From an uncultured Thermoleophilia bacterium (lineage in GTDB: Bacteria > Actinomycetota > Thermoleophilia > UBA2241), in assembly GCA_963702475.1 (NCBI GenBank), contig CAVPCT010000003.1, positions 64,001 to 128,000 of the forward strand: DNA of 64,000 bases. The letters run 5' to 3'. The notes under the pieces are model-generated. The model had not been told where the DNA came from, searched no databases, and saw only the letters and a list, made by a program, of their open reading frames with translations. Both the position numbers and the translations under genes were made by a program. Every line of letters starts with the position of its first letter. The stretch's first letter is position 1. Of the stretch, positions 10,061 to 28,920 are shown in pieces.

Positions 10061-11308
10061 CTAGGCCGTCTGGCCCCCGGGCGGGAAGGCGAAGACAGCC
10101 TTGACCGCCCCGTTCCTGCCCTTCTGCTTGGCGGTGAGCAGAGCGTCACGGTAGTCGTCGAGGGCAAAACGGTGCGTGACCAGCTGTGGCAGCCGCAGGC
10201 GGCCACTCTCCAGCAGGCCGAAGAAGTGCTCGAAGGCGTGCGCTCTCCGCCCCTCGAACTCCTCGACGCCGAAGGCGTTGGACCCGACCAGCTCGATCTC
10301 CTTGAAGTACTGCGGCGTCCACTCGAACCTCTTCGGCTTGCTGACGCCGGTGATGACGATGCGCGCCCGTGGGCGCGCGACGCGCAGGCCGGCCTCGAGA
10401 GTCGCGGCGGAGCCGATGCTGTCGTAGACGACGTCGACGCCGCCGTGCAGCCACAGCGGCCCGAAACGCGGCTTGATGGGCCGCTCGCCGGTGATGCTCG
10501 CCACCTCACGCACGAGGTCCTCAGTGGTGCCCGAAGGTACCACCCAGCGCGCGCCCAGGGCGCGCGCCATCTCGCGCTGGTAGGGGTAGCGGGCCACGGC
10601 CACGATAGCGGTCCCGGGGTAGGCCGCGCGCAGGAAGCCGATGGCCAGCAGACCAAGGGCCCCGCAGCCGTACACCAGCGCGATGCCGCCGTCGGGCGGC
10701 GGGGCCTTGAGCACGGCGTGCATGCTCACCGAGAAGGGGTCGGCCACGACGGCCGTCTCGAAGTCCACGCCGTCGGGGATGCGGAACAGCTGCGACTCGT
10801 GTGCGGGGAGCAACGGGGCGAAGCCGCCGCCGGCGTCGCGGCAGTTGCCGGTGTGCATGGCCGGCGAGAGGCGGCCGTCGGCGAAGTGCTCGCAGAGGAA
10901 GTAGTGCCCGTCACGGCAGGCCGGGCACGGCTGGTCGATGCCTCGCGGCGCGCACGACAGCCACGGGTTGAGCGCCACCCTGTCGCCGGGCCGCACGCGC
11001 GTCACGGCCGGCCCCACCTTCTCCACCATCCCCACAGCCTCGTGGCCGGGGATGAACGGGAAGGAGATATAGCCGCTGAGGGGGTTGTCCATCTCCGCGT
11101 CGATGAAGATGAGCTTGGTGTCGCTGCCGCAGATGCCGCACAGCGCCGTGCGCACCACCGTCCAGTCGTCGAAGCAGACGACGGGCTCGGGGACCTCTTT
11201 GAGCTGGGTCGGTGCCGTCGGGCCGAGAAACGCTTTGGTGCTGACCCTGCCGGCGGCCATGGCCGACACGATGCGCGGCAGGTCGTAGTCGAAGACGACT
11301 GCCTTCAT
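10061..11308 (-). CDS. Zinc-dependent medium-chain alcohol/polyol dehydrogenase
   Basis: CGICGSD, GHEAVG, structural Zn cysteines C..CPAC..C, GCGALG Rossmann motif. In frame with the upstream HpnA-like ORF in this assembly. Confidence 0.9.
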   Translation of the reverse strand: MKAVVFDYDLPRIVSAMAAGRVSTKAFLGPTAPTQLKEVPEPVVCFDDWTVVRTALCGICGSDTKLIFIDAEMDNPLSGYISFPFIPGHEAVGMVEKVGPAVTRVRPGDRVALNPWLSCAPRGIDQPCPACRDGHYFLCEHFADGRLSPAMHTGNCRDAGGGFAPLLPAHESQLFRIPDGVDFETAVVADPFSVSMHAVLKAPPPDGGIALVYGCGALGLLAIGFLRAAYPGTAIVAVARYPYQREMARALGARWVVPSGTTEDLVREVASITGERPIKPRFGPLWLHGGVDVVYDSIGSAATLEAGLRVARPRARIVITGVSKPKRFEWTPQYFKEIELVGSNAFGVEEFEGRRAHAFEHFFGLLESGRLRLPQLVTHRFALDDYRDALLTAKQKGRNGAVKAVFAFPPGGQTA

Positions 11309-12378
11309 GGTGCGGCCTGGCTCCGCGGCCGCCGGCGACGGGGCCGCCGCCGCTCCCGCGCTCCTCTTTGCCCGTCGCCCCTCCGGGCGCAGCGGGACGT
11401 ACCCGTGGGACTCGTACCACGCGATCGCCTTGGCCAGCGCCTCGCGCGCCGGCGCCGGCGCGTACCCGAGCTGGCGCATCGCCTTCGCCGAAGAGAAGGT
11501 CTCGCGGTGTGTGGAGAGACGGGCGCTGGTCGGCGTGGCGACCGGCGTATGGGAGCGGTCGAGCCGCGCCCAGGCGACGTCGGCGTACCCCCAGCCGACG
11601 GCGACGGCGTGTGGGATGCGCCGCGTGGGCGCCGGCACGCCGGAGAGCTCGGCAAGCAGCTCGAGCAGCTGCCGCAAGGTCATGCTGTCGCCGCCCAGGA
11701 TGTACCGCTCGCCGACGATGCCCTTGCGTGCGGCGAGCAGGTGGCCGGCGGCCACGTCGTCTACGTCGACGACCGTCAGCGTCGTGTCGACGTAGGCCGG
11801 CATGCGCCCGTTCAGGAAGTCGACGATCATGCGGCCGGTCGGCGTCGGCTTGTAGTCGCCGACGCCGACCGGCGCCGCCGGGTTCACGATGACGATCGGC
11901 GCGCCCTCCCCGGCGAGGCGGCGCGCCTCTTCCTCGGCGAGGTACTTGGAGCGCTTGTAGTCGCCGAGCATGTCGGCGAACGACACCGGCGTCTCCTCGT
12001 CGCCGGCCGATCCGTCCGCGGGCTGTCCCAGGGTCGCGATGGAGCTGGTGTGGACGATGCGCGCGGCTCCGGCCCTCCAGGCCGCGCGCAGCGCGTTGCG
12101 CGTGCCGTCCACATTGGTCGCGACGAACTCCTCCCAGTCGTGTCCCCAGAACGTGTACAGCGCGGCCACGTGGTAGACCTCGTCGCAGCCGTGGCAGCCG
12201 CGCTCGAGGGCCTCCGCGTCGCCAAGATCCCCGGTGACGATCTCCACGGGCAGGCCGTCGAGCAGGCGGGTGTCGCCGCCGCGCCGTACGAGGACCCGCA
12301 CCTCCGCCCCTCGGCGAGCAGGCGCCGGACCACGGCGCTGCCGACGAAGCCGTTGCCGCCTGTCACGAACGCACGCAT
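11305..12378 (-). CDS. hpnA: HpnA-like NAD-dependent epimerase/dehydratase (extended SDR); frameshift in the C-run at 12307-12310; possibly fused to the downstream dehydrogenase
   Basis: MRAFVTGGNGFVG; HVAALY; YKRSK catalytic motif; VNPAAPVGVGDYKPTPTGRMIVDFLNGRMPAYVDT typical of hopanoid-associated sugar epimerases. Confidence 0.8.
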
Positions 12379-13625
12379 GGGTCCTCCTCGCCGTCGATCT
12401 CCTCGAGCACGGCGGCCACGAAGTCGGCCGCGCGGGCCATGAACGCACCGCTCACGGTGTCCGGCGTGTCGTCGGGGCGGTGCCAGTGTGGCAGCGACCC
12501 TTCCCGCGGGTCATATCCGGCCAGGCACAGAGCCCGGTAGCCGAGCCGTCGCAGCCCGGTCACCTCGTCCTCCAGCGGCAGCTCGGCCGGCTCCGTGGCG
12601 AGCCCGGGGCGCCGGGCGGCGGCGCGCACGACCGTCGCGAGCAGCGCGGGTTCGGGGCGCACGTGGTCGCAGAGCCCCTCGCGTGTGAGGTAGGTGAGGC
12701 GGCCGCTGCCGAGGCCCTCGAGGCCGATGAAGTCGGCCGCACGCATGGCGGCCGGCTCCTGCGCCAGCAGGGCGACGAGGCCGGCATGGTCGGTCTCCTC
12801 GGCGCCGGTGAACGCCAGGACGACCTCGGTCCGCTCCAGCGGGCGCGCCGCCAGGCGGCGCGCGACCTCGAGCGCGACGGCGACGCTCGCGGCGTTGTCG
12901 TGAGCGCCGGGCGAGTAGGGCGCGCGCCAGTCCCGCAGGAGGGTGATGAGCATCCCTACGGCGTACGCCGCGGGCACGAGCGAGGTGTACCACAGCACGC
13001 CCGGGCGGCTCTTGCGCGTCGTTCGGGACGCGAGCCCTGTGGCGGCGCCGGCCGCGTACAGCGCGCCCGGCGCCGCCAGCATGGCCACTGTGAGCCAGGT
13101 GAGCCGTTCGAGCTGCCGGACTGCGCCCGCGCGCCACGCGAGGCGTGAGCGGTTGGTGTCGAGGTGGGCGAGCAGCACGACCCGGCCGACCGGGACGCCC
13201 GACGGCGCGAGCGTTGCGACCACGTTGCCGCTGCTCACCTTCGGCAGCAGCGGCCCCAGCGGGCTGCGCGACAGGCGGATCGCCCGCCACAGGAGCGGTG
13301 CGGACGGCAGGGCGAGGCCGGCGGCCGCCAGGCGACCTGCCCGGCCGAACGGGTACGCGGCGACGGCCAGGAGCGACAGCGCCACGCTGGCCAGCGGGAA
13401 CACGTTCTGGTCGCGGACGGCGCGGAAGGTCGTACGGGCGGCGGGCAGGCCGAGCGCGGCCAGGCGGGCGGCCACGTAGTCGCCGGCCGCCCGCTCCGCG
13501 CTGGTCCCCGTGCCCCGCGGCCCGATGCGCCCGGCGAGCTCCTCCACGTCGGCGAGCATCGACGCGGCGGGTGCGAGCTCCGCCTTGCCCGCCGTGCGTC
13601 GTACTGCGACGGCGGCAGCTCTCAC
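12363..13625 (-). CDS. M28 family zinc metallopeptidase/hydrolase with internal TM segments
   Basis: IGPRGTGT, LAHLDT, GAHDNAAS, FTGAEE, HWHRPDDT; GTGA overlap with the aminotransferase stop. Confidence 0.85.
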   Translation of the reverse strand: MRAAAVAVRRTAGKAELAPAASMLADVEELAGRIGPRGTGTSAERAAGDYVAARLAALGLPAARTTFRAVRDQNVFPLASVALSLLAVAAYPFGRAGRLAAAGLALPSAPLLWRAIRLSRSPLGPLLPKVSSGNVVATLAPSGVPVGRVVLLAHLDTNRSRLAWRAGAVRQLERLTWLTVAMLAAPGALYAAGAATGLASRTTRKSRPGVLWYTSLVPAAYAVGMLITLLRDWRAPYSPGAHDNAASVAVALEVARRLAARPLERTEVVLAFTGAEETDHAGLVALLAQEPAAMRAADFIGLEGLGSGRLTYLTREGLCDHVRPEPALLATVVRAAARRPGLATEPAELPLEDEVTGLRRLGYRALCLAGYDPREGSLPHWHRPDDTPDTVSGAFMARAADFVAAVLEEIDGEEDPCVRS

Positions 13626-15046
13626 TGCGACAAAGCCTGTCTGATGAGGTGCCCGCTCTGCCGCCACACCCTGCCGCGCACGCTCTCGGCCTCGGTCATC
13701 ACGGCGTCGAAGGCGGCGGCGACGGCCGTCACCTCCTCGTCGCCGATGACCAGCGGCGGCAGCAGCTTGATGATGTTCACGTCGGGGCCGCCGACCTGGG
13801 TGAGGATGTGGTGGTCACGCATCAGCGACATCACCACGAGCTGCGCGAACAGCCCCTTCTGAGCCGCCTCCGCCGCCGTCCAGGCGGCCTTGAGCGTCAG
13901 CGCCCTGGGAGGCCGGAACTCGACGCCGATCATCAGGCCCCTGCCGCGCACGTCGGCGATCATCTCGTGGCGGTCCTTGAGACGGGCGAGCTCCGCGAGC
14001 AGGCGCTCGCCCGTCTCCGCCGCCCGTTCCACCAGCCGCTCCCGGTCCAGCACGGCCAGGCTGGCCAGCCCGGCCGCCATGGCCAGCTCGTTCTCCCCGA
14101 AGGTGGTCGTGTGCACCTGGCAGCGGTCGAGCCGTCCGTACACCTTGTCGTACAGGCTCCGGCGCATCAGCAGTGCGCCGACCGGTATGAACCCCCCGCC
14201 CAGCGACTTGGCGAGCGTCACCATGTCGGGTTCCAGCCCCCAGTGCTCCAGTGAGAGAAAGCGCCCGGTGCGGCCCATGCCGGCCTGGACCTCGTCGCAG
14301 ACGAACACCGTCCCCGCCTCGCGGCAGAGGCGCTGGGCCTCCGGCAGGTAGCCGTCCGGCGGCACGTACACGCCCTTGCCCTGGATGGGTTCGACCACCA
14401 GCGCAGCCACGTCGCCCTTGCGCAGTTCCCACTCCAGAACGTCGGTGTCTCCCATCGGCACGCAGTCGAAGCCGGGCATGAGCGGTCCGAAGCCCTTGCG
14501 GAACTGCTCGCCGCCGTTGCACGACAGGGTGCCGAGCATCACTCCGTGAAACGCGTGCTGCAGGTACAGCACACGCGGTCGCCCGGTCGCCCCGCGCGCG
14601 AACTTGAGCGCCGTGTCCACCACGTCCGAGCCGTCGTTGCCGAAGAAGGCGATGTCGAGGCCGGTCGGCATCTTCGCCGCAAGTTCCTCAGCCAGCAGCC
14701 CGGCCAGAAGCGGGCAGTCCATCTCGACCATGTTGGGACGCTGCAGGGAGAGCGCCTCCTCGAGGGCAGCACGGACCACGGGGTGGTCCCGCCCGAGGTT
14801 GTACACGCTGTACCCGGCGATGAGGTCCAGGTACCGGTCGCCCGCTCGGTCCCAGAGATAGGCGCCTTCGCCGCGGACCCAGACCCTGTCGAAGCCGATG
14901 ATGGGCAGGACGCGCGCCAGAAGGGGGTTCACGTGGCGCGCGTACAGGTCGTACTGGTCGGCCTGGCGTCGTGCGATGGTGTCGGCCAGGGAGAACGTGA
15001 CGCCTCGTTCGCCCATGGGGATGCCCACGGTCCGCTCGCTATCCAT
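13622..15046 (-). CDS. Class III PLP aminotransferase, HpnO-like
   Basis: HVNP..ARVL..IGFDR..VRGEGAYLWD..G.RYLD; EPIQGKG; DEVQAGMGRTG; LAKSLGGG (PLP Lys); own RBS GGGAGGG before ATG 15046. Confidence 0.88.
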   Translation of the reverse strand: MDSERTVGIPMGERGVTFSLADTIARRQADQYDLYARHVNPLLARVLPIIGFDRVWVRGEGAYLWDRAGDRYLDLIAGYSVYNLGRDHPVVRAALEEALSLQRPNMVEMDCPLLAGLLAEELAAKMPTGLDIAFFGNDGSDVVDTALKFARGATGRPRVLYLQHAFHGVMLGTLSCNGGEQFRKGFGPLMPGFDCVPMGDTDVLEWELRKGDVAALVVEPIQGKGVYVPPDGYLPEAQRLCREAGTVFVCDEVQAGMGRTGRFLSLEHWGLEPDMVTLAKSLGGGFIPVGALLMRRSLYDKVYGRLDRCQVHTTTFGENELAMAAGLASLAVLDRERLVERAAETGERLLAELARLKDRHEMIADVRGRGLMIGVEFRPPRALTLKAAWTAAEAAQKGLFAQLVVMSLMRDHHILTQVGGPDVNIIKLLPPLVIGDEEVTAVAAAFDAVMTEAESVRGRVWRQSGHLIRQALSQ

Positions 15047-15084
15047 CGACCCTCCCTGCCGCATCGCCGCGCCGGTGGTCCGGC

Positions 15085-18000
15085 CTACGCCATCATGCGC
15101 CCTATCTCGCGCAGCGTCTCGAGCATGTCGGCGGGCAGCGCGGGCGCCTCTCTGCCGGCCACGTGACAGCTCCAGATGAGGTGCGACACGCGCTCGATGA
15201 CCTCGGCGGCGTTGGCCGCCTGCCGCAGGCTCGTGGCGGCCACCACCAGGCCGTGGTTCTGCAGCAGGACGGCGCTGCCGTCTCCCAGGGCGTCGCGGGC
15301 CGCCAGGGCGAGCGCCTCGCTGCCGGGCATGATGAACGGCACCCGCGGGATGTCGCCGAAGAAGGCCGCCTCGGTGGTCACCGGAGCGAACGGGATCCCG
15401 GCCATGCCGAGGATCGTCGCGTAGGCGGCGTGGGCATGCACGACGGCCTCGATCTCGGGGCGCGCCTGGTAGATCACGCAGTGCAGCAGCCGTTCGCTGG
15501 ACGGGGCCGGCGCCTCGGGGTCGGCGGCGTTGCCGTCGAGGTCCACGCGGACCATCATATCCGGCGTCAGCCGTCCTTTGAAGAGCTGGCTCGGCGTGAT
15601 CCAGAGTCTCGGCTGTGCCCGGGATACGGGCGCTCACGTTGCCGCCGGTCGCGGTCAGGAGTTCGGCGGCGAAGAGCTCCTCGGCGGTGCGCGTTACCTC
15701 CTCGCATACTGCCGCGGAGACCGCGTCGAGGCCAGGCTTCGCGCGCGCGGCGCCGGTGACGGCGACCCCGGCGAAGGCGTCGGCCGGCGCGGCCGGCACG
15801 GGCGTGGAGAGGTCGGCGCCCGTCGCCGGATCGGCGCCGCGCGCGGTGCCTGCGGCGAAGTCGATGCCGCCGACCTCCCGCCGTGCGGCGCCGTACAGCC
15901 GCACGAAGTCCTTCTGCACGCGCTGCATGCCCATGGCGGCGCGCACGTCGCCGCTGAACGACAGACGCCCCGTCATGGCCGCCTTGTTGCCGTTGAGGCG
16001 GCCGTCCAGGATGGCGTCGAGCACCTCGCCCCTGGCCTTCAGCCGGACCTTCGCCGGCTCCGGCGGCGGGCCCATGCCGGAGACGACCCGGCCGTCCCCG
16101 AAGCCGATGTGGAAGTGCAGGTCGAAGTCGCTGACCGTGTACTGCGAGACGACCGACTTTTTCGCGGCGAAGGCGAGGAGCGCCTCGTCGGTCGCGGCCC
16201 GCGTGACGAACAGGCTCAGGACGCGCTCCATCTGGGCGGCCGCGCCGGCGGCCGGCGCCGCCGTCGCGGCGAAGTCGGCCGGCCGCACGGCTGCGGCCGC
16301 GACGGGCGCTCGCACCGCCTCTCCGGACCGTCCGCAGCTTGGCTCTTCAGCCGGCCGCGCCCGCCCGAGGTCCGTCACGTCCGGGGCGGCGCCGGCCACG
16401 AGGGCCGCCACGGTGGCCGCGTCGGGCGCCTGACGCGGCACGTCCCAGGAGAACCCGGAGAGCGTCTCCGGGTTCAGAACGTTCAGGGGAGCCCGGCCGG
16501 CGGCCATGCGGCGCAGATCTGCCGCGACCGTGCGCCCCTGGTGGCCGCCGACCTCCACCGTGTTGCCGCCGACGTGGGGCGTGGCGATGACGTTCGAAAA
16601 GGCCAGGAGCGGATCGTCGGCGGCCGGCGGCTCCACCGGGAACACGTCGAACGCGGCCCCACCCAGCCGTCCTTCGCGGAGCGCCGTCAGCACTGCCGTC
16701 TGATCCACCAGACCGGCCCGGGCCGTGTTCACGAGCAGCGCGCCGGTCTTCATGAACGCGAGCCGGGACGTGTCCATCAGCCCGCGCGTGTCGTCGGTGA
16801 GCGGCGCGTGCAGGCTCACGATGTCGGCCGCTGCCAGCAGCTCGTCCAGAGGAGCCGGAGCCGCGTCAGCGAGCCTGATCTGTGCCTCGTCAACGAACGG
16901 GTCGTGGACGAGCACGCGAGCGCCGAAGGGCGCGAGGCGCCGCGCCACGGCGCGGCCCACGGCGCCGAAGCCCACGAGCCCGACCGTCCGCTCCCACAAC
17001 TCGTGTCCCAGCAGTGCCTCGTGGGCCTGCCCCATGCGGCCCATGTCGCCGGCCTCGCCGCCGGGCGTGCGCAGGAACGCATCCGCGGCCACGAGGCGGC
17101 GCGAGAGCGCCAGCATGAAGGCGACGGTGAGGTCGGCGACGGCCTCGGCGTTGCGTCCGGGCGCGTACAGGACTGGGATGCCCAGCGCCGTGCAGGCCGC
17201 CAGATCCACGTTGACGGCCCGGCCGCGGCACGACGCGACCACACGCAGGCCCGGCAAGCGGACCAGGGCCTCCGCGTCGGCGATATCCACCTCGGTGATG
17301 AAGACGTCCACGCCCTCGAGGGCCTCGACGAGGTCGTCGCCCGTGAGCAGGCGGAGCTGCTCGCGGTAGCCGGCGTGAGTGACCTCGCCGAGGGCGCGCA
17401 GCTCTGCCAGGGCGATGTCGTCGAGGTCGGCGGTGGCGAGGATGCGCAGTGACCGGCGCCTCGGCGCGACGAGCGGCCGGGCGGCGGCGTCCGCTCCGGC
17501 CGCCGCCGCGCTCTCCGGCGGCGCGACACTCGGCTCAGCTTCGCCGGCCGCCTCGGCCCTCTCCATCAGGTCGCGCAGGGCGATGCCGGCGGCCGCGCGC
17601 GTCGCCGGGACGCTGGCCCCCTGCAGACGCAGCCACTCCTCGTACAGCTCGCCGTACTTCCGCGATGACGCGGCGTCCGGAGACAGCCGCTCGGTCCTCG
17701 CCATGCGCTCCGCGCCGGCGGCCGTGCCGGCGAACACGCCGGCGCCGACGCCGGCGCAGACGGCGGCCCCCAGGGCGCTCGCCTCCGCAACCAGGGACAC
17801 GTCCACGGGCGCTCCCAGCACGTCGCAGACGATCCGGCTCCACAGGCGGGAGCGGGACATGCCTCCGGTGAGGGTGACCGGCTCGCAGGCGGCCGGAGCC
17901 GGCGCGGCGCCGGGGACGGCGAGCAGTCTCTCCGCGTTCGCGCGCACCGCGAACGCCATCCCTTCGAGCACGGCGCGGGCGAGGTCCGCGCGGCCTGCCG

Positions 18001-19144
18001 CCGCGGCGCCCTGGCCGTCGCTCCCGGCTCCGGGGCCGCCGGGCGGCGCCGAGAGGTGGCTCAGCGACAGCGTACCGATGGGCAGCGCCAGCATGTCGCG
18101 GCCGTCCATCAGCTGGGCGCCGAGAGACGAGGTGGCGCCGCGCGCCCCAGGCGGTGCGGTGGAGGCCTCCGCGAGCAGCCGGGCGACTGGGTCCGGCGCG
18201 CCGGCGCAGAGCACACCGGCGAACCACGACAGGGCGTCGCCCATGGCCCCGGCGTTGCTCTCGAGCACGCCGAGACCCGGCGCCACGTGTCGCCCGGCCC
18301 ACACCCGCGCGGTCGGGTCCACCCGGGGCGGCGCCGTCACCAGCTGAACCGGCGTGGTGCTGCCGGCCACGACCCCGACGGCGCCGGCCCGCGTTACGCC
18401 TGCGCCCAGGAGGCCGCACTGCGTGTCCGCGCCACCTACGGCCACCGGCGTGCCGGCGCGCAGGCCGAGCGCGGCCGCGGCCCGCGCCGTGAGTCCTCCG
18501 AGCGGCGAGCCGGACGGGCGTACCGGCGGCAGCAGGTGCGCGGGGAGGCCCAGCCACTCCGTGAGGTCCCGGGCCCAATCGCCGGCGACCACGTCGTACA
18601 GCAGGGTCTCCGCCGCCTGGGACGGGTCGGTGGCCGCCTCGCCGGTCAGGCGGAGTGCCAGCCAGTCGCTGAGGCTGAACGCCCACGCGGCCCGCTCCAT
18701 GAGGTCCGGCCGCTCGGTGGCCAGCCACTGCAGCCGGGCCGCGAGGAAGATGGGACCCGGCCAGTGGCCCGTCCGTGCCGCCAGGGTGTCACCGTGCTCG
18801 TCGGCCAGCAGAACGCCCTGCTCCGCGGCGCGCGCATCGTGGTTCGGGACCGCGTACAGGACGTCGCCGGCGCGGTCGGTGAGCACAGCGCTGAACCTCA
18901 TGCCGGTGACCGCAAGGCCGGCGATGTCGCCGGCGTGGGCGCCGGCCCTGGTCAGCACCTCCGCGACCACCTCCGCCACCAGGCGCCAGCACAGGGCCGT
19001 GTCGAGTTCGAATGCGAAGAGGCCGTCGGCAGGCGAGGGGCGCCATGACCGCGTCGCGGTGTCCAGGCCCCCGGCGTGCAGGTCGGCGAGCAGGCAGCGG
19101 ACGCTGCTGCCCCCGCAGTCCACGCCCAGCAAGAATCGACCCAT
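15085..19144 (-). CDS. Four-domain fusion: FGGY (LsrK-like) carbohydrate kinase + D-2-hydroxyacid dehydrogenase + SCP2 lipid-binding domain + class II aldolase; frameshift near 15605
   Basis: Kinase: GVDCGGSSVR, NHDARA, GGADTQ, LTGGMSRS. Dehydrogenase: PGRNAEAVAD, GFGAVG, NTARA, TPHVGG. SCP2-like: ILDGRLNGNKAAMTGRLSFSGD. Aldolase: ATGGNVSAR / WITPS..PSSE..LH..HAH..LLQNHG. Confidence 0.85.
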
Positions 19145-19349
19145 GAGCCCCCCGGGCAGCCGTACGGGCAGAAGAGAGGACCAGACCACTATAGTCCGGC
19201 CCACGTGACGCGGGCCAGTGTCCGGACGCCTCTGTGCACGTCTGTCCTGCGGTGCTTCCGGTGCGTTCCGACGATGCGCATCGCGCCCACTCCCTGTAGC
19301 ATGGATTCGCCGGGGCTGGACCCGGCGCCGCACACCGGAGGCCGTCGGG

Positions 19350-20738
19350 ATGTCACTCCAGACGCGCACGCAGACGGGCCGCGCCGACGTGAGCCCTGAG
19401 GCGTCGCCGGCGCGACTCCCCGGCATGGACGCGTTCGCGGCCATGCCGCCGGACGCGCGCGGCCCACTGCTCGAGGGCGGCGTGCTCGACGCCCACCGCC
19501 TGCACTACGTCCGCAACGTCGCGTACCGCCGCGCGGTGCACGCGCGCGGCGTCGGTGAGACGACGTGCGCCGAGGCCCTCCACCTGCTGCTGCGGCCAGC
19601 ATCCCTCACCTTCAAGGGGTACGTCGACGCCGTCGGTCCGTTCCCGCAGGAGGCTCCGCGTGGCTTCCTCTCGTGGCTCGACGACCAGCTGTCCGTCCCG
19701 CTTCCGGTCGCCCGCGCCCGCGGACTGCGGCGCCGGTACCTGACCATGGAAGGCCTGCTCGCCGCCGTCGAGCGCCTGTGCGCCGGCGTCGGGCTCGAGA
19801 TGCTCACCTCGAGCGGTACGTCGGGGATCGCCAGCGTGGTGCCCCGAGATGCCGCCAGCACCGATCTCGCCGTGCGGTCGTTCTTCGCCGGCATCCGCCG
19901 CTCCTGGGGTGTCGCGCGCGGGTCGGCGATGGTCTTCGTGATGCCCGAGCGGACCAGGGTGGCCATGGCCCGCTCGGCGCGCATCGGCATCAGGCAGCTC
20001 GACTGGGCGAGCGACACGCCCGTGTTCTACACGATGCCGTTCGCGGCGACGCCGGACCTGATCCGCCTGCGCGGCGGCCGGAGCTTCTATCCCGGGCTTC
20101 GCGGTCTCGCCGAGCGGAGGATCCTGCACCCGGCCCTCGTCCGGGCCGACGCCCGGTTCGTGGCCGGCCGCTTCGTCGCGGAGACGCGGGTGCGCCTGCG
20201 CGAGCTCTGCGACGCCGGGCGGCCGCTCATGCTGCTTGGGGGCGCGGCGCAGCTCCACGCCGTGGCGCAGGCGGGGCCTCTGCGGCTGCCGCCCGGCAGC
20301 CGGGTGGCGACCGGCGGCGGCAGCAAGGAGCGGTATCCGGTCTCCCCGGCCGGCATCCGCGACGTGCTCGAGGCCGCCTTTCCGGGCACGCCCGTGGCCG
20401 ACGTGTACGGGATGGCGGAGGCGGACTGGGCGGCGTTCGAGTGCTCCGCCGGCAACCACCACCTCCCTCCCTGGATCTATGCTGTCGTCACGGACGACGC
20501 CGACCGCATCGTCGCCGGCCCGCGGGCTACGGGCATGCTGGCCTTCTACGATCCCGTCGCGGGGGGTGAGGTGTTGCCCCCCTTTTTCCAGACGGCCGAC
20601 CGCGTCACGCTGATCAACGGCGGCTCGGCCTACGAGCCCGGCCTGCGGTGCGCCTGCGGCGACGACTCCGCCTACATCGAGGGGGGCGTGTGGAGGGCGG
20701 ACCTGATGGGAGAGGCCGGCTGCGCGGCCCAGCTGTGA
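19350..20738 (+). CDS. luxE: LuxE-like acyl-protein synthetase (ANL superfamily)
   Basis: TSSGTSG P-loop, TGGG.K, DVYGMAE, HHLPPW, LAFYDP, FFQTAD, C-terminal R....EAGCA with the acyl-accepting Cys; RBS GGAGG. Confidence 0.8.
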   Translation: MSLQTRTQTGRADVSPEASPARLPGMDAFAAMPPDARGPLLEGGVLDAHRLHYVRNVAYRRAVHARGVGETTCAEALHLLLRPASLTFKGYVDAVGPFPQEAPRGFLSWLDDQLSVPLPVARARGLRRRYLTMEGLLAAVERLCAGVGLEMLTSSGTSGIASVVPRDAASTDLAVRSFFAGIRRSWGVARGSAMVFVMPERTRVAMARSARIGIRQLDWASDTPVFYTMPFAATPDLIRLRGGRSFYPGLRGLAERRILHPALVRADARFVAGRFVAETRVRLRELCDAGRPLMLLGGAAQLHAVAQAGPLRLPPGSRVATGGGSKERYPVSPAGIRDVLEAAFPGTPVADVYGMAEADWAAFECSAGNHHLPPWIYAVVTDDADRIVAGPRATGMLAFYDPVAGGEVLPPFFQTADRVTLINGGSAYEPGLRCACGDDSAYIEGGVWRADLMGEAGCAAQL

Positions 20739-20751
20739 GGGAAGGGAACCG

Positions 20752-22386
20752 GTGAACGAAGCGGTCCACGACGGCTTCTGGCTTCCACAGGGGATCCGCG
20801 ACCGGGTGGTCAGGGATGCGGACTGGGTGACCGTGCGCCTGAGCGGGGGCTCCCTTCGGGAGGAAGCGCAGGGCCACAGTGCGGCGACCGGCGACGCCGG
20901 CGCCGGCGGAGCACCGGCCGCGGCGGCTTGCGCCAACCCAGGCATCGCCGTCCGCTGGCCGCGTCTCTCCGCCTCCGGCTGGAGCGACCTCCTGGCCGCC
21001 CTCCGCGCGGCGCGCCGCGTCGGCGGGGACGAGGCGGCGGAGCGGTGGCAGGCGGCCCTGCGGCAGGTGATGTCCCGCCTGACCGCCGACCTGCCCGAAC
21101 GTCTGCCGCTGCTGTCCGCGGCCACGGGGTACGCACCCGAGATGCTCGTCGCGTCCCTGACGGGCGGCGATCTCGTCGACCCGGGCTCTCTGCGTCCGGC
21201 CCTGGACTTCCGCCCGGGATGGGGCGCTGCGTCGGCCTGGGTGCGGCACCCGTCGCTCGGCGGCCGCGTGCGCTTCTTCCCGCACGGCCTCCTCGGACGG
21301 GTGTGGACGGCTGCCGGCGGGGATGCGCCCCTCTTCCGGCCTGCTCCGCGTACCGGTCTCGCCGTGTGCTTCGCGGCCGGCAACGTGCCAGGGACCGCAC
21401 TCGTGCTGGCCCTCATGGGCAGCCTCGCGAACCACGCGGACGCGGCCGGCGCCCTGGCGCCGGCCGTGCTCGTGCGCAACAGCCGCCACGAGCCGCTGTT
21501 CACCCCCTGGGTCCTCACCGCCGTGGAGCGCGTGGACCCGGAGCTCGTCGCCGCCGTCGCGGTGACGGTGTGGGACTACGAAGACCTCACCCTGCAAGGG
21601 CGGCTCTTGCGCTCGGCCGGACTTCTGCTGGCGGCCGCCGACGACGGCACCATCGCCTCGCTCGACGCGCTGCGCGAGCGCGAAGCTCCCCGGCTGCGCT
21701 TCCACCGTCATGGACACAAGTTCAGCTTCGCGGTGCTCGGCAGGGACTGGGCGACGCACCCGGAGGCGCCTCGCCTGGCGGCCCTCGACTCCTGCTTCTG
21801 GGACCAGAACGGCTGCCTCTCCGCACGCGTGCACTTCGTCGAGGGCGACGCGCCGGCGTACGCGGAGGCGCTCGCCGTCGAGATGCGGGCGCTGGCCGCG
21901 GAACTGCCCCGCGGCGCGACGCCCGCACGCTTGACCCACCGGGCCTTCGACGGCTTCGCGGCCCTGGCCGGCGACGGCGCGGTGCGGCTTTGCTCCTCCT
22001 ACGACGACCAGTTCGCCGTCGCCCTCGACGGCCGCGCCTGGCGGCCCGAGTCGCTGCGCCGCGCTGTGAACGCCTGCCAGGGCCGCGTCGTCGTCGTGCG
22101 GCCGGTGCGCGACATAATGGACGTCCCGGTGCTGTTGGGGGCCTTGCCGCCGGGCAACCTGCAATCGCTGTGCGTTCTCGCTGCGAAGGACCGCGTCGAA
22201 CCACTGGCGGCGGCGGCCGGGGCCCGTGGCGTCACGGCGGTGCGTGCCATCGGACGCGGCGCCTTTCCGCAGCTCGCCTGGTCGTGGGACGGCTTGCTGC
22301 CGGCGGACGTCTGCTGCGTGCGTCCCGGCGGCCGCTTCACCTCGATCGAGCCCGACCTCCTCGGACCCGTTGAGGAGCGCTCGTGA
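20752..22386 (+). CDS. luxC: LuxC-like acyl-CoA/acyl-protein reductase (ALDH superfamily)
   Basis: FAAGNVPG, HGHKFSFAV, D..FWDQNGCLS (catalytic Cys), LQS, C-terminal WDG..P; directly follows the luxE-like gene. Confidence 0.85.
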   Translation: MNEAVHDGFWLPQGIRDRVVRDADWVTVRLSGGSLREEAQGHSAATGDAGAGGAPAAAACANPGIAVRWPRLSASGWSDLLAALRAARRVGGDEAAERWQAALRQVMSRLTADLPERLPLLSAATGYAPEMLVASLTGGDLVDPGSLRPALDFRPGWGAASAWVRHPSLGGRVRFFPHGLLGRVWTAAGGDAPLFRPAPRTGLAVCFAAGNVPGTALVLALMGSLANHADAAGALAPAVLVRNSRHEPLFTPWVLTAVERVDPELVAAVAVTVWDYEDLTLQGRLLRSAGLLLAAADDGTIASLDALREREAPRLRFHRHGHKFSFAVLGRDWATHPEAPRLAALDSCFWDQNGCLSARVHFVEGDAPAYAEALAVEMRALAAELPRGATPARLTHRAFDGFAALAGDGAVRLCSSYDDQFAVALDGRAWRPESLRRAVNACQGRVVVVRPVRDIMDVPVLLGALPPGNLQSLCVLAAKDRVEPLAAAAGARGVTAVRAIGRGAFPQLAWSWDGLLPADVCCVRPGGRFTSIEPDLLGPVEERS

Positions 22387-22578
22387 GTGTCAAGGGCTGC
22401 CTGAGGACCGCTGACTGGGTGCTCCCATGCGGGCGCCCCCAACGTTTTGCCGCAGGTGGTAGCGGGTACGTCCGGGGCCTTACGTGCGCGGTGGTGGGCG
22501 GCGTCACGAGCCGTCGGCAAAGCCGTCACCGTCGGCACACGACTCCTGAAGGTGCTCTCGAACAGTGAGGAAGGAGGA

Positions 22579-23112
22579 ATGACGATGTCGAGACCTGTGC
22601 ATGCGAGCCACGCCGGAGTCCTTGCGGTCGTCATCGTGCTCGCCCTGGGAGCGGTGGGCGCAGCGTGCGGCGGGGAGGAGGAGAGCAGCAGCCCTGCACC
22701 CAGCAGCACCTCTGTGCCGTCCGCGAGCCCGAGCCCGGGCGAGTCGGCGCTGTCGGGCGACGAGGCGGAGATCGCGGCCAACTGGGAGGCCTTCTTCGAC
22801 GGGACCACGCCGGCCGACCGCAAAGTAGAGCTCGTGCAGAACGGCACGCAGTTCGCGGACGTGATCGGGGCGCGGGCGGACTCGCCCTTGTCGCAGTCGA
22901 CGACGGCGAAGGTGTCGGCGGTGACCATCACATCCGACACCGAGGCGGACGTGACGTACTCCATCCTCATGGGCGGTCAGGTCGTGCTTCCCGACCAGAC
23001 CGGACAGGCCATCCGGGAGAACGGCCTGTGGAAGGTCGGAGCCGAGAGCTTCCAGGCGCTTCTCGCGCTCGAGGGAGCGTCCGGCGCCCCCTCACCTGGC
23101 GCGTCGCCCTGA
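22579..23112 (+). CDS. Lipoprotein (MTB12/Cfp2-like actinobacterial family)
   Basis: Lipobox-like GAAC after a hydrophobic stretch; Ser/Pro linker; NWEAFFD..TPAD.K..LVQNG; G.A...NG.WKV; RBS AGGAGG. Confidence 0.7.
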   Translation: MTMSRPVHASHAGVLAVVIVLALGAVGAACGGEEESSSPAPSSTSVPSASPSPGESALSGDEAEIAANWEAFFDGTTPADRKVELVQNGTQFADVIGARADSPLSQSTTAKVSAVTITSDTEADVTYSILMGGQVVLPDQTGQAIRENGLWKVGAESFQALLALEGASGAPSPGASP

Positions 23113-23175
23113 GCGTACGACCGGACGACGCACGGTCCAGCTCCAGCGCATCGCGCGACCGGCTGATGGAGATAG

Positions 23176-24789
23176 ATGGCTGCGCATGAGGGTCTGATCC
23201 AGACCTACGGGGGGGTGCGAGGGCGCGCCCTCATGGTCGTGTGCGGGGTCCTGTTCCTCACCTTCCTGGACACGACCATCGTCAGCGTCGCACTCGCCGA
23301 CATGCAGACGACGCTGCACGCCGGCGTTCAGTCCCTGCAGTGGGTGGTCAACGCTTACGCCCTGGTCTTCGCAGGGCTCATGCTCGGCATGGGCACCGTG
23401 GGCGACCGGTTCGGGCGCAAGAGGGTGATGCTGGCCGGAGTGGGCGTCTTCACCCTGGGCTCGGTGCTCGGCGCGGTCGCGCCGAACGTGGAGCTCGTCA
23501 TCGCCTCGCGCGCGATCATGGGCGTGGGGGCGGCGGCGTGCGAGCCGGGTACCCTGTCGATCATCCGCCACCTCTATCCCGAGTCCGGCCCACGCGCCCG
23601 GGCGCTCGGGGCGTGGGCGGCCGTCTCCGGTCTGGCGCTCGCCCTCGGCCCGGTGATCGGGGGCGTCCTCGTGAGCCTCGGGGGCTGGCGCTACGTGTTC
23701 TGGTTCAACGTCGCCGCAGGGGCGGCAGCGCTTGTGGCCGCGTTCCTGGCGGTGCCGGAGAGCGCCGACCCGCAGAAAGCGAAGTTCGACGTCGCCGGCT
23801 TCGTCCTGGGGCCGCTGGCCGTGGGCGCCGCGATCTTCGCCGTCATCCTCGGCGAGACCCGCGGCTACTTCTCCACGGGCATCCTGGGGCTCTTCGGCCT
23901 CAGCGTCGTCCTGTTCGCTGCGTTCGTCCTCGTCGAACTGCGGAGCCCGGCGCCGACGCTCGACCTGGACTACTTCCGCAAGCCAGGGTTCTCGGGAGCG
24001 ATGGTCGTCGCATTCGCCGCGTACTTCGGCATCTTCTCCATCTTCTTCTTCACGGCGCTGTACCTGCAGGTCGTCACAGGCTACTCCGGCTACCGCGTGG
24101 CCCTGCTGTTCCTGCCCATGGCGGTCGCCATGATCCTGTCGTCGGTGTTCGCGGGGAGGTGGGTCGGGCGCGCCGGACCGCGCGTGCCCATGACGATCGG
24201 CTGTGTCGCCGCTGGGGCAGGCATCCTGCTCACCGAGCTCGCGCTGCTGGGCGAGCCGTCGTTCGCCGGGCTGGCCCTCTCGCTCACGCTCGCCGGCCTG
24301 GGCTTCGGGCTGGCCGTCGTCCCCGTGACCTCTGTGGCGCTGAGCGAGGTCCCGGCCGAACACTCGGGCATGGCTGCATCGGCGACGAGCACCAGTCGGG
24401 AGATGGGCTCGGTGGTCGGGGTCGCCGTCCTCGGGGCCATCGTCAACGGGTATCTCGTGGTCGACCTGGCCGCACGCCTCACGGCGCTGGGCGTGCCCCC
24501 GGCGTTCCAGAAGATCGTCAGCGACGCGATCCTGACGGGGCGGATGCCGAGCAGCAGCAGCGCCGCTGAAGCCGAGGCCGCATACGGGCCGCTGGTCATC
24601 AAGGTCATGGACGCGGCGTACGGCGCGTTCCACACGGGGCTCAACGTGTCGCTCACTGTGTCCGGCGTCGCCATCCTGGCATCCGGTCTTGTCGCGTGGT
24701 TCGCCGTGGGGCGCGCTCCCTCGTCAGTCACGGAACCGTTCGACGACGCCGACGGCGACTCCAGTGAGGCCGAGACCGCCGGGGCTTGA
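23176..24789 (+). CDS. MFS transporter, DHA2 (14-TMS) efflux family
   Basis: LDTTIVSVAL, WVVNAY, GDRFGRKR motif A, GPVIGG..WRYVFWFN. Confidence 0.93.
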   Translation: MAAHEGLIQTYGGVRGRALMVVCGVLFLTFLDTTIVSVALADMQTTLHAGVQSLQWVVNAYALVFAGLMLGMGTVGDRFGRKRVMLAGVGVFTLGSVLGAVAPNVELVIASRAIMGVGAAACEPGTLSIIRHLYPESGPRARALGAWAAVSGLALALGPVIGGVLVSLGGWRYVFWFNVAAGAAALVAAFLAVPESADPQKAKFDVAGFVLGPLAVGAAIFAVILGETRGYFSTGILGLFGLSVVLFAAFVLVELRSPAPTLDLDYFRKPGFSGAMVVAFAAYFGIFSIFFFTALYLQVVTGYSGYRVALLFLPMAVAMILSSVFAGRWVGRAGPRVPMTIGCVAAGAGILLTELALLGEPSFAGLALSLTLAGLGFGLAVVPVTSVALSEVPAEHSGMAASATSTSREMGSVVGVAVLGAIVNGYLVVDLAARLTALGVPPAFQKIVSDAILTGRMPSSSSAAEAEAAYGPLVIKVMDAAYGAFHTGLNVSLTVSGVAILASGLVAWFAVGRAPSSVTEPFDDADGDSSEAETAGA

Positions 24790-25931: not shown

Positions 25932-26003
25932 AACTCCTCCTGTCGAGGCGTTCGCCGGGCGATATAGTAGCTACGATACGCCATCCGCGCCGGGGGTAGG
26001 GCG

Positions 26004-28850: not shown

Positions 28851-28920
28851 TGCGAGACAATGGGCCGGCCGTTGAAGGGTCGCGTCGTCCGCGGCGGGAG
28901 CGACCCGGGAGGGACGTGGG

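Follow-up and report, generated by a model that had tools for sequence, protein, structure and literature searches.

A conserved gene cluster around a kinase-dehydrogenase-SCP2-aldolase fusion enzyme in an uncultured Thermoleophilia bacterium, with a possible role in the catabolism of lipid-tailed polyols

The DNA analysed here, referred to below as the window, is a stretch of 64,000 nucleotides (nt; ~72% G+C) from contig CAVPCT010000003.1 of an uncultured Thermoleophilia bacterium, whose genome is a metagenome-assembled genome (MAG) of 4.3 Mb in 9 contigs. Reading frames were picked by codon-position G+C and then by Pfam and NCBIfam matches. The gene block at positions 10061-22386 is a real, conserved accessory gene cluster; it contains a fusion gene for an FGGY kinase, a D-2-hydroxyacid-type dehydrogenase, an SCP2 domain and a FucA-type class II aldolase, accompanied by genes for an aminotransferase, an M28 hydrolase, a double dehydrogenase and a divergently transcribed LuxE/LuxC-like pair (LuxEC). 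All seven reading frames of the original prediction are present at their predicted positions, each backed by Pfam. Three points had escaped it: the aldolase is split, the N-terminus of the short-chain dehydrogenase/reductase (SDR) is out of frame, and the SDR is fused to the zinc (Zn) dehydrogenase.

The fusion gene occupies 15085..19144 on the minus strand (ATG at 19144) and encodes about 1,352 amino acids (aa) when an assembly indel is discounted. From the N-terminus its product consists of the FGGY kinase domain (17744..19132; FGGY_N 137.8 bits, FGGY_C 52.2 bits), the D-isomer 2-hydroxyacid dehydrogenase-type domain (16472..17350; 2-Hacid_dh_C 180.8 bits, a second Pfam domain 53.3 bits), the SCP2 domain (Pfam core 15914..16153; PF02036 40.7 bits, cutoff 21.3; structural domain ~130 aa) and the class II (FucA/DrdA-type) aldolase domain (15085..15727; PF00596 133.8 bits over 15085-15633). 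On the same minus strand follow the class III (omega-type) aminotransferase gene (13622..15046; Aminotran_3 271.6 bits; GGGAGG precedes the ATG at 15046), the gene for an M28-family metallohydrolase with a hydrophobic insertion (12363..13559; Peptidase_M28 62.8 bits, cutoff 21.3), and the gene for an HpnA-like extended SDR fused to a Zn polyol/threonine-dehydrogenase-like domain (10061..12378; TIGR03466, ADH_N and ADH_zinc_N). The M28 gene probably starts at ATG 13559, or else at GTG 13625 or 13667; its translation shows two hydropathy peaks and the motifs HLD, AHDNAAS and GAEE, of which we take HLD, DNAAS and AEE to carry the zinc ligands. The SDR and Zn-dehydrogenase form a single open frame, as they also do in L053 (767 aa) and G019 (804 aa). 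On the plus strand lie the gene for a LuxE-like acyl-adenylate/acyl-protein synthetase, a distant member of its family (19350..20738; PF04443 22.3 bits, below the cutoff of 24.9), and the gene for a LuxC-like acyl-thioester reductase/aldehyde dehydrogenase-superfamily protein (20752..22386; PF05893 91 bits, cutoff 21). The genes are as tightly packed as had been claimed (gaps of 38, 62 and 13 nt, one 16-nt overlap), and the divergent region between the fusion gene and the LuxE-like gene (19145..19349) is exactly the 205 bp that had been given for it. When this spacer was scanned for promoters and terminators, no promoter-like site and nothing above chance was found; a hairpin at 19178-19202 is within chance expectation.

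Two of the genes are broken in the window. One extra base at ~15607 splits the aldolase and joins the fusion gene and the aminotransferase gene into a spurious 1,940-aa frame. This one-base insertion lies within 15603..15607 (minus strand), where the window has GAGACTCTGG versus GAG-CTCTGG or GAG-GCCTGG in orthologues. The base is extra relative to five orthologues, contigs from three other studies (runs X1, X6 and X10) are each one letter shorter at 15607 (a fourth run, X2, had no coverage there), and both aldolase halves share one frame in 50 of 52 orthologous loci; a programmed frameshift or a pseudogene was rejected for this site on the strength of the three independent studies, the in-frame orthologues and the different position of the breaks in congener G020. 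In the SDR gene, the N-terminus MRAFVTGGNGFVG (ATG at 12378) lies in a different frame from the rest, and a base missing from a G-run at ~12305 separates the Rossmann N-terminus from the remainder. The SDR is continuous across this site in three congeners (L091, L094 and L095), on which basis this break, too, looks like an assembly indel. Both genes look intact in nature and are treated as such here because of the contigs from other studies (at 15607) and the in-frame orthologues and congeners. Congener G020 breaks frame in other genes and at other places than the window; in its locus L091 (G020:C13:16000-35900) the M28 gene, the Zn-dehydrogenase gene and the SCP2-aldolase linker each shift frame between tblastn segments, which suggests an indel-prone assembly.

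Conservation of the fusion enzyme was analysed in 42 intact orthologues, loci that were truncated, contained stops or were out of frame having been dropped. The Asp of the kinase GGxD motif, the Arg, Glu and His of the dehydrogenase, and the Asn, Ser, Ser-Glu, His-x-His and His of the aldolase are each kept in 42/42; these are the residues with catalytic roles in the three families. Because the catalytic motifs are invariant in orthologues from many phyla, we infer that the kinase, dehydrogenase and aldolase activities are all used, including ATP-dependent phosphorylation. SCP2 equals the kinase in its degree of conservation (0.53-0.74, gaps 0.00-0.01); the true linkers of the fusion score 0.09-0.26, with gaps up to 75%. 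Among the NCBIfam models, no equivalog cutoff for any sugar enzyme was reached by the fusion domains. The kinase is closest to autoinducer-2 (AI-2) kinase (236-249 bits, failing the LsrK equivalog cutoff of 528) and xylulokinase (183 bits), and scores 105 bits against glycerol kinase. The best dehydrogenase matches, below their cutoffs, are PGDH (208 bits, cutoff 454) and glyoxylate reductase (200 bits). The aldolase fails the FucA equivalog (91 bits, cutoff 264) and scores alike against the AraD-like and OtnC models, i.e., 91-92 bits each for FucA, AraD and 3-oxo-tetronate-4-phosphate decarboxylase, with the MtnB dehydratase model at ~60 bits.

The assignment of the aldolase to the FucA type in the original prediction agrees both with the residues retained for zinc and dihydroxyacetone phosphate (DHAP) and with the fold. 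Its GGN-S, P-S-S-E, H-x-H and N-H-G motifs align to FucA structures, in which three His bind zinc, the Glu is catalytic and the Asn/Ser bind phosphate. In an AlphaFold model of SCP2 plus aldolase (pLDDT 87.6, pTM 0.79) the aldolase part can be overlaid on FucA and 6btd/6btg with TM scores of 0.91-0.93 and a root-mean-square deviation of ~1.9 A; 6btd/6btg, the 5-deoxyribose-disposal aldolase with DHAP bound in the structure, is among the best matches to the aldolase in sequence as well as in fold. The SCP2 domain modelled alone has a pLDDT of 94.5, and a Foldseek search gave 46 matches at E <= 0.001, of which the 31 listed after similar chains were dropped are all SCP2-fold domains (best TM to target 0.80). 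They include alkylsulfatase C-domains (SdsA1, solved with 1-dodecanol), UbiJ-SCP2 and sterol carrier proteins, which we take to bind hydrophobic chains. The predicted SCP2 domain thus appears to be a true and constrained lipid-binder fold, from which binding of a hydrophobic ligand may be expected. PF02036 is carried by all 120 homologues listed, many of which also have a precomputed PF14864 (Alkyl_sulf_C) match.

Judged by its sequence, the LuxE-like protein is a distant relative of LuxE and not an equivalog. It scores 22 bits against NF052244 (cutoff 550) and fails the Pfam cutoff as well; a homologue in metagenome locus L106 scores above the latter (PF04443 31.3 bits). Its sole match in the Protein Data Bank (PDB) is LuxE 7xc6_E (E = 1e-5), with TSSGTSG aligned, and Cys-458 in EAGCAAQL, five residues from the C-terminus, is invariant in 4/4 congeners and a candidate equivalent of the LuxE Cys; we assume for LuxE an adenylate-forming motif and an acyl-accepting C-terminal Cys. 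The LuxC-like protein scores 26 bits against the LuxC equivalog (cutoff 750) and has no PDB sequence match. The aminotransferase matches the PigE aminotransferase domain (417 bits, failing the cutoff of 850), lacks the PigE N-terminal domain, and has 4ppm (307 bits) and putrescine aminotransferase (235 bits) as its best PDB matches. Because PigE and putrescine aminotransferase, its nearest relatives, interconvert a terminal aldehyde and a primary amine, it looks like a terminal-amine type, better suited to turning such an amine into an aldehyde than to transamination at C2.

The SDR exceeds the cutoff of the HpnA model TIGR03466 (367.65) with 382-385 bits in the window, though its first 21 positions are missing, and with 424-434 bits in congeners; matches above cutoff occur in 6 of the 54 genus genomes scanned, always beside the aminotransferase, and in 0/14 control genomes. 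In the PDB the SDR domain matches 3wj7 (245 bits), and the Zn domain matches threonine, xylitol and sorbitol dehydrogenases, being closest to polyol 2-dehydrogenases. The function of HpnA itself is still given as unknown in PMC12583986. Neither squalene-hopene cyclase (TIGR01507) nor HpnH (TIGR03470) was found above cutoff in the cluster-bearing genomes (0/5 each). Endogenous hopanoid side-chain tailoring was therefore excluded, despite the SDR passing the HpnA cutoff, as none of the five genomes has a squalene-hopene cyclase. At G041:C18:266866-267808, in a genome that lacks squalene-hopene cyclase, the contig with the cluster also carries an HpnH-like radical SAM gene, broken into two frames that score 198 and 187 bits against a cutoff of 225.

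To follow the cluster within the genus, 54 genomes were scanned with the dehydrogenase-SCP2 part of the fusion (E <= 1e-60) and with the LuxC-like protein (E <= 1e-20). The fusion is present in 5/54 and the LuxC-like gene in 4/54, the remaining 49 having neither. Wherever the LuxC-like gene occurs (G000, G020, G058 and G059; 4/4), it is adjacent to the fusion and divergent from it; G058 and G059 were taken as the same genomes as L002 and L053 and counted once. The fifth fusion copy sits on a short contig of a 1,070-contig assembly. Because the same gene order recurs in three congeners (G020, G058 and G059, the last without M28), the block is more than a chance assembly. Its limits, the Zn-dehydrogenase on one side and LuxC on the other, lie exactly at 10061 and 22386, and a common flank follows, o24909 and an FHA-ABC gene. 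Between LuxC and this flank, the window has at 22447-24789 (plus strand) a 221-aa open reading frame (ORF) of no known family and an MFS_1 transporter gene; since both are missing from that position in the three congeners, they are a strain-specific insert. In G019 and G014 the same chromosomal site carries only the aminotransferase and SDR, plus the Zn-dehydrogenase in G019. An attempt to set the island boundaries from the flanks of congeners without the cluster failed, the DUF2207 homologues being only 31-52% identical and FHA-ABC not being found there at 1e-40.

Beyond the genus, LuxEC does not occur within 10 kb of any fusion locus. A metagenome scan with the LuxC-like alignment gave no relatives, and a scan with LuxE gave 17 contigs; in 14 of these LuxC follows LuxE, one contig ends just past LuxE, and two hold 414 and 939 nt without a LuxC match. 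The divergent arrangement of the window recurs in L099. In L106 a single strand carries genes for a B12-binding radical SAM protein, LuxE, LuxC, dehydrogenase, several ORFs, an FGGY kinase, further ORFs and a class II aldolase, and these unfused genes score 336 (dehydrogenase), 461 (kinase) and 129 bits (aldolase) against profiles of the fusion's own domains. L105 has B12-binding radical SAM, LuxE, LuxC, M28, two ORFs of no known family and then aldolase; L103 has LuxE-LuxC-M28; in L111 LuxC is followed by a dehydrogenase fragment. The predicted link between LuxEC and the operon is seen both as adjacency in the 4/4 congeners with LuxC and as proximity to unfused relatives in L099, L103, L105, L106 and L111; L098, with LuxEC alone, and L114, where LuxEC is found in a different context, are counter-examples. 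Because unfused kinase, dehydrogenase, aldolase or M28 genes adjoin LuxEC in metagenome loci, the association, as read from gene order, appears to outlast fusion or fission and gene reordering. In the four loci L103:4073-5410, L104:2316-3641, L105:3233-4570 and L106:8602-9921, a B12-binding radical SAM gene stands directly upstream of LuxE-LuxC on the same strand, and may belong to the same pathway in those lineages. L106 also has, at 15347-15787, a 146-aa ORF with matches to two of the profiles, that of the kinase C-terminus (50 bits) and that of the dehydrogenase (60 bits); it may be a fusion-junction remnant inside an unfused cluster.

In species-representative genomes 80 loci were found, and the full fusion is encoded in about 60. 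These come from Anaerolineae/Chloroflexota (including the cultured Bellilinea caldifistulae), Myxococcota/Deltaproteobacteria, Spirochaetales, Bacteriovoracaceae, Gammaproteobacteria and Clostridia, and the fusion is also present in the Mycobacterium kansasii complex (M. kansasii, M. pseudokansasii, M. innocens and M. persicum). In a large protein collection, at least 331 homologue clusters (90% identity) were found at E <= 1e-20 among 8,000 candidates scored. Aldolase_II, 2-Hacid_dh and SCP2 occur in all of the 120 homologues listed and FGGY in most; three-domain versions of 759-840 aa lack the kinase (P0025, P0086, P0089, P0092, P0094 and P0101). Because these versions occur, the constant core would be dehydrogenase-SCP2-aldolase. 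The names given to the fusion in the sources are generic or wrong ("NAD(P)-dependent oxidoreductase", "Autoinducer-2 kinase", "hypothetical protein", also sugar kinase and epimerase). No such enzyme was found in literature on SCP2/class II aldolase/FGGY enzymes, on phytosphingosine or bacteriohopanetetrol/hopanoic acid degradation, or on Rv0727c/Rv0728c/Rv0729; the original prediction, which knew of no described pathway with this gene set, is in keeping with this literature. M. tuberculosis presumably has adjacent fucA, serA2 and xylB genes, a possible lead. The Kribbella/Streptomyces loci L061-L077 were considered as unfused orthologues and rejected, their kinases being only ~30% identical and no aldolase being found in them.

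The neighbourhoods of the ~60 full-fusion loci, many of which are kin and not independent, have no neighbour family common to more than 9/60. Genes for handling aldehydes or acyl groups are found near the fusion in 18/60 loci, in three non-homologous forms. The first is aldehyde:ferredoxin oxidoreductase (AFOR), in 6 loci, directly upstream of the fusion in L005 and L045 and first in an AFOR-aminotransferase-M28-SDR-fusion operon in L009. The second comprises beta-oxidation-type genes (AMP-binding in 7 loci, ACAD in 7, also enoyl-CoA hydratase, thiolases and CoA-transferase), mostly in Myxococcota/Deltaproteobacteria, and the third is LuxEC, in 2/60 loci, both Thermoleophilia. An aminotransferase match was found in 6 of the 80 loci of the scan. 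A SorC-type regulator gene is immediately upstream in 7 Bellilinea-type loci, and L004 has a GntR/UTRA regulator; these regulators are of catabolic types, SorC being a sugar-phosphate type. Nine loci share a block of household genes, which is uninformative either way. In Bacteriovoracaceae locus L044 (18-9851), the fusion has AFOR downstream, and upstream of it stand a transketolase gene, which is split, and genes for Zn-dehydrogenase, classical SDR, class III aminotransferase, HpnA-like SDR and Amidohydro_2; with transketolase the locus has another enzyme, besides the aldolase, that can form or cleave C-C bonds at aldehydes.

A kinase that feeds a ketose-1-phosphate aldolase is the established logic of fucose and rhamnose catabolism. 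We tentatively propose, at somewhat less than an even chance, that the cluster acts catabolically by clipping DHAP from a hydrophobic-tailed (amino)polyol, with release of an aldehyde. In the fusion enzyme, the SCP2 domain would hold the hydrophobic tail, as its modelled fold suggests, the FGGY domain would phosphorylate the terminal CH2OH, the dehydrogenase domain would oxidise the adjacent CHOH to a ketone, giving a ketose-1-phosphate, and the FucA/DrdA-type aldolase would cut between C3 and C4 to yield DHAP and an aldehyde three carbons shorter. The aldehyde or acid would pass to partners that differ between lineages: the LuxC/LuxE-like pair in that of the window, AFOR in Chloroflexota, and, in Myxococcota/Deltaproteobacteria, an acyl-CoA synthetase together with beta-oxidation genes. 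Head groups that are aminated or epimeric may be brought into a form acceptable to the fusion enzyme by the aminotransferase and SDR-Zn dehydrogenase, a terminal amine becoming an aldehyde and then an alcohol or ketose, and the membrane-associated M28 hydrolase may remove an N-acyl or similar cap. We infer the order of the steps, the direction, the lipid nature and the identity of the substrate; the scheme is the most economical one, using every conserved activity in domain order. The kinase-then-aldolase logic is established in 5-deoxyribose catabolism (PMC6079011). Degradation had been offered in the original prediction as its pathway run backwards, and that part fits better than biosynthesis in view of the kinase, the type of aminotransferase, and the catabolic neighbours and regulators.

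Several observations weigh against this proposal. Aldehyde- or acyl-handling neighbours are missing from 42/60 fusion loci, some of the adjacency seen in the others may be chance, since ACAD and AMP-binding genes are common, and some fusion loci adjoin sugar-type genes (GH1, MFS_2, SorC). The modules are separable: L098 holds LuxEC alone at the same chromosomal site, and aminotransferase-SDR(-Zn-dehydrogenase) stands alone in G019 and G014. SCP2 was not detected in the unfused LuxEC contigs. The dehydrogenase family normally acts on 2-hydroxy acids, so this domain may work after aldehyde oxidation; alternatively to the scheme above, it would oxidise a 2-hydroxy acid formed in that way and the sorbitol-dehydrogenase-like Zn domain would make the ketose. 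The main difficulty is LuxE, an ATP-using acid activator that is not needed for degradation. LuxE-LuxC stand at the head of the operon in L103-L106, and in the only characterised setting presented in the cited account LuxE/LuxC use ATP and NADPH to convert acid to aldehyde; the tambjamine TabE/TabA precedent given there is also biosynthetic (10.1101/2025.08.11.669332).

Because degradation does not need LuxE, biosynthesis stays alive as an alternative, though we consider it unlikely. In this alternative, which was the primary reading of the original prediction, a fatty aldehyde from LuxE/LuxC (or from AFOR run in reverse) would be joined to DHAP by the aldolase to give a 1-phospho-2-keto-3,4-diol, from which the aminotransferase, SDR and Zn-dehydrogenase would fashion an amino-polyol lipid. 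The acid-to-aldehyde direction of LuxE/LuxC in the setting just cited (10.1101/2025.08.11.669332) and their lead position in L103-L106 suit such a route, class II aldolases are reversible, and the patchy occurrence (5/54 genus genomes) resembles that of a specialised-metabolite cluster. The aminotransferase can be argued both ways: it is nearest to the biosynthetic PigE, but its relatives act on terminal aldehydes or amines and not on internal ketones, as transamination at C2 would demand. The kinase has no part in such a route, yet its catalytic residues do not vary in 42/42 orthologues; the conserved block holds no phosphatase, and no exporter is conserved, the MFS gene being strain-specific; moreover, the fusion mostly sits with catabolic regulators, AFOR or beta-oxidation genes. 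With the kinase idle and the aminotransferase not of the C2-ketone type, biosynthesis was not kept as the primary reading.

Somewhat less likely again is catabolism of a soluble substrate, in which the fusion would phosphorylate and oxidise a short polyol, a deoxy-sugar or a four-carbon acid sugar and then cleave or decarboxylate it, with SCP2 as a mere structural spacer and LuxEC, aminotransferase and M28 as loosely related neighbours. Sugar enzymes are indeed the nearest named families of every catalytic domain (AI-2 kinase/xylulokinase, PGDH/PdxB, FucA/AraD/3-oxo-tetronate-4-phosphate decarboxylase), and the sources call the protein a sugar kinase or epimerase, but no sugar-enzyme equivalog cutoff is reached. 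SorC, GH1 and MFS_2 near some loci are matched against beta-oxidation, AFOR or LuxEC neighbours in 18/60. The unfused loci without SCP2 would suit a spacer, but in the fusion this domain is constrained like the catalytic domains, its fold matches only SCP2-fold domains, and PF02036 is present in all 120 homologues listed.

We regard as very improbable the biosynthesis of a fatty amine or (alkyl-)iminosugar, by which LuxEC or the SDR would provide an aldehyde, the omega-transaminase the amine and the aldolase the polyol backbone, the Zn-dehydrogenase enabling cyclisation of the amine by oxidising a hydroxyl. A LuxC-like reductase and an omega-transaminase make the fatty-amine tail of tambjamine BE-18591 (10.1101/2025.08.11.669332), and in G019 and G014 the aminotransferase-SDR(-Zn-dehydrogenase) set is a self-standing module. 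The iminosugar cluster signature, however, is aminotransferase plus phosphatase plus Zn-dehydrogenase (10.1101/2025.02.13.638044), and it failed here, no phosphatase family being found in the conserved block; the kinase is again unexplained, and most fusion loci lack an aminotransferase (match in 6/80). Breakdown of ether lipids (1-O-alkylglycerols), in which the kinase would form alkyl-glycerol-3-phosphate, the dehydrogenase alkyl-DHAP, and the aldolase-fold domain would enolise this product and expel an alcohol for oxidation by the Zn-dehydrogenase/SDR and then LuxC or AFOR, follows purely from domain chemistry (a kinase family that includes glycerol kinase, 105 bits; PGDH-like enzymes that oxidise CHOH next to CH2OP; an aldolase fold family that includes dehydratases such as MtnB, ~60 bits) and from lineages with many anaerobes (Anaerolineae, Desulfobacterota-like, Spirochaetales), and we give it the slightest chance of all, since the aldolase retains the FucA-type Glu and is closest to true aldolases, no neighbourhood points specifically to ether lipids, and we know of no precedent for alkyl-DHAP elimination.

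Within the proposed lipid-polyol catabolism, a bolder and improbable version is that the fusion is the missing biological route by which soils and sediments lose membrane lipids with polyol heads; the boldest candidates for these are the bacteriohopanepolyols. The aminotransferase would deaminate aminobacteriohopanetriol, and reduction by the Zn-dehydrogenase would give bacteriohopanetetrol. After phosphorylation of the tetrol at C35 and oxidation at C34, a cut between C32 and C33 would give DHAP and a C32 hopanoid aldehyde, which LuxC or AFOR would turn into C32 hopanoic acid. Chemical (Rohmer) cleavage breaks the same C32-C33 bond and gives C32 hopanol, and C32 hopanoic acids and hopanols are common in sediments. 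The same chemistry could instead act on alkyl polyols, of the phytosphingosine type or others.

Whatever its substrate, the fusion is a widespread orphan multi-domain enzyme without a functional name, and the cluster offers a first testable context for orphan families such as non-luminous LuxE/LuxC-like pairs and HpnA-like SDRs. If DHAP is truly removed from lipid-tailed polyols, carbon from membrane lipids would have a new way into glycolysis, and the enzyme would be a candidate agent in the turnover of polyol lipids by microbes; being a DHAP aldolase that brings its own lipid-binding module, it could also be useful for the synthesis of long-chain polyols. The bacteriohopanepolyol version, if true, would give sedimentary C32 hopanoic acids and hopanols an enzymatic origin.

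Some neighbouring genes may be recorded here. The window carries, on the plus strand, a gene for three FHA domains fused to an ABC ATPase and ABC-2 permease (25971-28784) and a gene for a Ser/Thr protein kinase fused to a TIR_2 domain (28876-31335); congeners and related metagenome contigs keep both of them next to the cluster. In an Anaerolineales MAG, a heliorhodopsin gene (L051:8789-9850) is immediately upstream of the fusion and divergent from it.

Parts of the cluster resemble several known systems. With the hopanoid pair HpnA (SDR) and HpnO (class III aminotransferase) it shares an SDR that passes the HpnA cutoff and is always beside an aminotransferase, but there is no squalene-hopene cyclase in 5/5 genomes and no HpnH above cutoff. 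Its likeness to the LuxC-LuxE fatty acid reductase (7xc6) lies in the paired genes (14/17 loci), the LuxC Pfam match of 91 bits, the TSSGTSG motif and a conserved C-terminal Cys that may correspond to the one in LuxE; unlike the luminous systems, it has no LuxD and no luciferase, and the equivalogs fail (22 versus 550 and 26 versus 750). As in PigE, TamH and TabE+TabA, the aminotransferase (best match the PigE domain, 417 bits; 4ppm, 307 bits) shares a cluster with a LuxC-like reductase, but the PigE N-terminal domain and the pyrrole/polyketide context are absent and the pair is tied to a kinase-aldolase enzyme. Peroxisomal MFE-2 and the alkylsulfatases SdsA1 and Pisa1 likewise carry an SCP2-fold domain on enzymes for hydrophobic-tailed substrates, and such domains are the top fold matches; the catalytic domains are entirely different, and here SCP2 stands between dehydrogenase and aldolase.

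The closest parallels are with sugar catabolism. The L-fucose/L-rhamnose module (FucK/RhaB, FucA/RhaD and lactaldehyde dehydrogenase) also combines an FGGY kinase with a Zn-dependent class II aldolase (Ser-Ser-Glu plus three His), with DHAP and an aldehyde as expected products and an aldehyde-oxidising partner nearby. It differs in that the cluster's domains are fused and joined by a dehydrogenase and SCP2, an isomerase is missing, scores stay below the FucA and FucK equivalog cutoffs, and the partners are LuxEC, AFOR or beta-oxidation genes. The 5-deoxyribose salvage pathway DrdK-DrdI-DrdA (PMC6079011; 6btd/6btg) provides the best sequence match of the aldolase (75.5 bits) and one of its two best folds, and it takes a sugar whose deoxy end is non-polar through phosphorylation and a ketose-1-phosphate to aldol cleavage; in the fusion, by contrast, the kinase is of another family, a dehydrogenase instead of an isomerase would make the ketose, the domains are fused with SCP2, and the gene partners are others. 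The cluster is best filed as ketose-1-phosphate aldolase catabolism adapted to a hydrophobic-tailed substrate.

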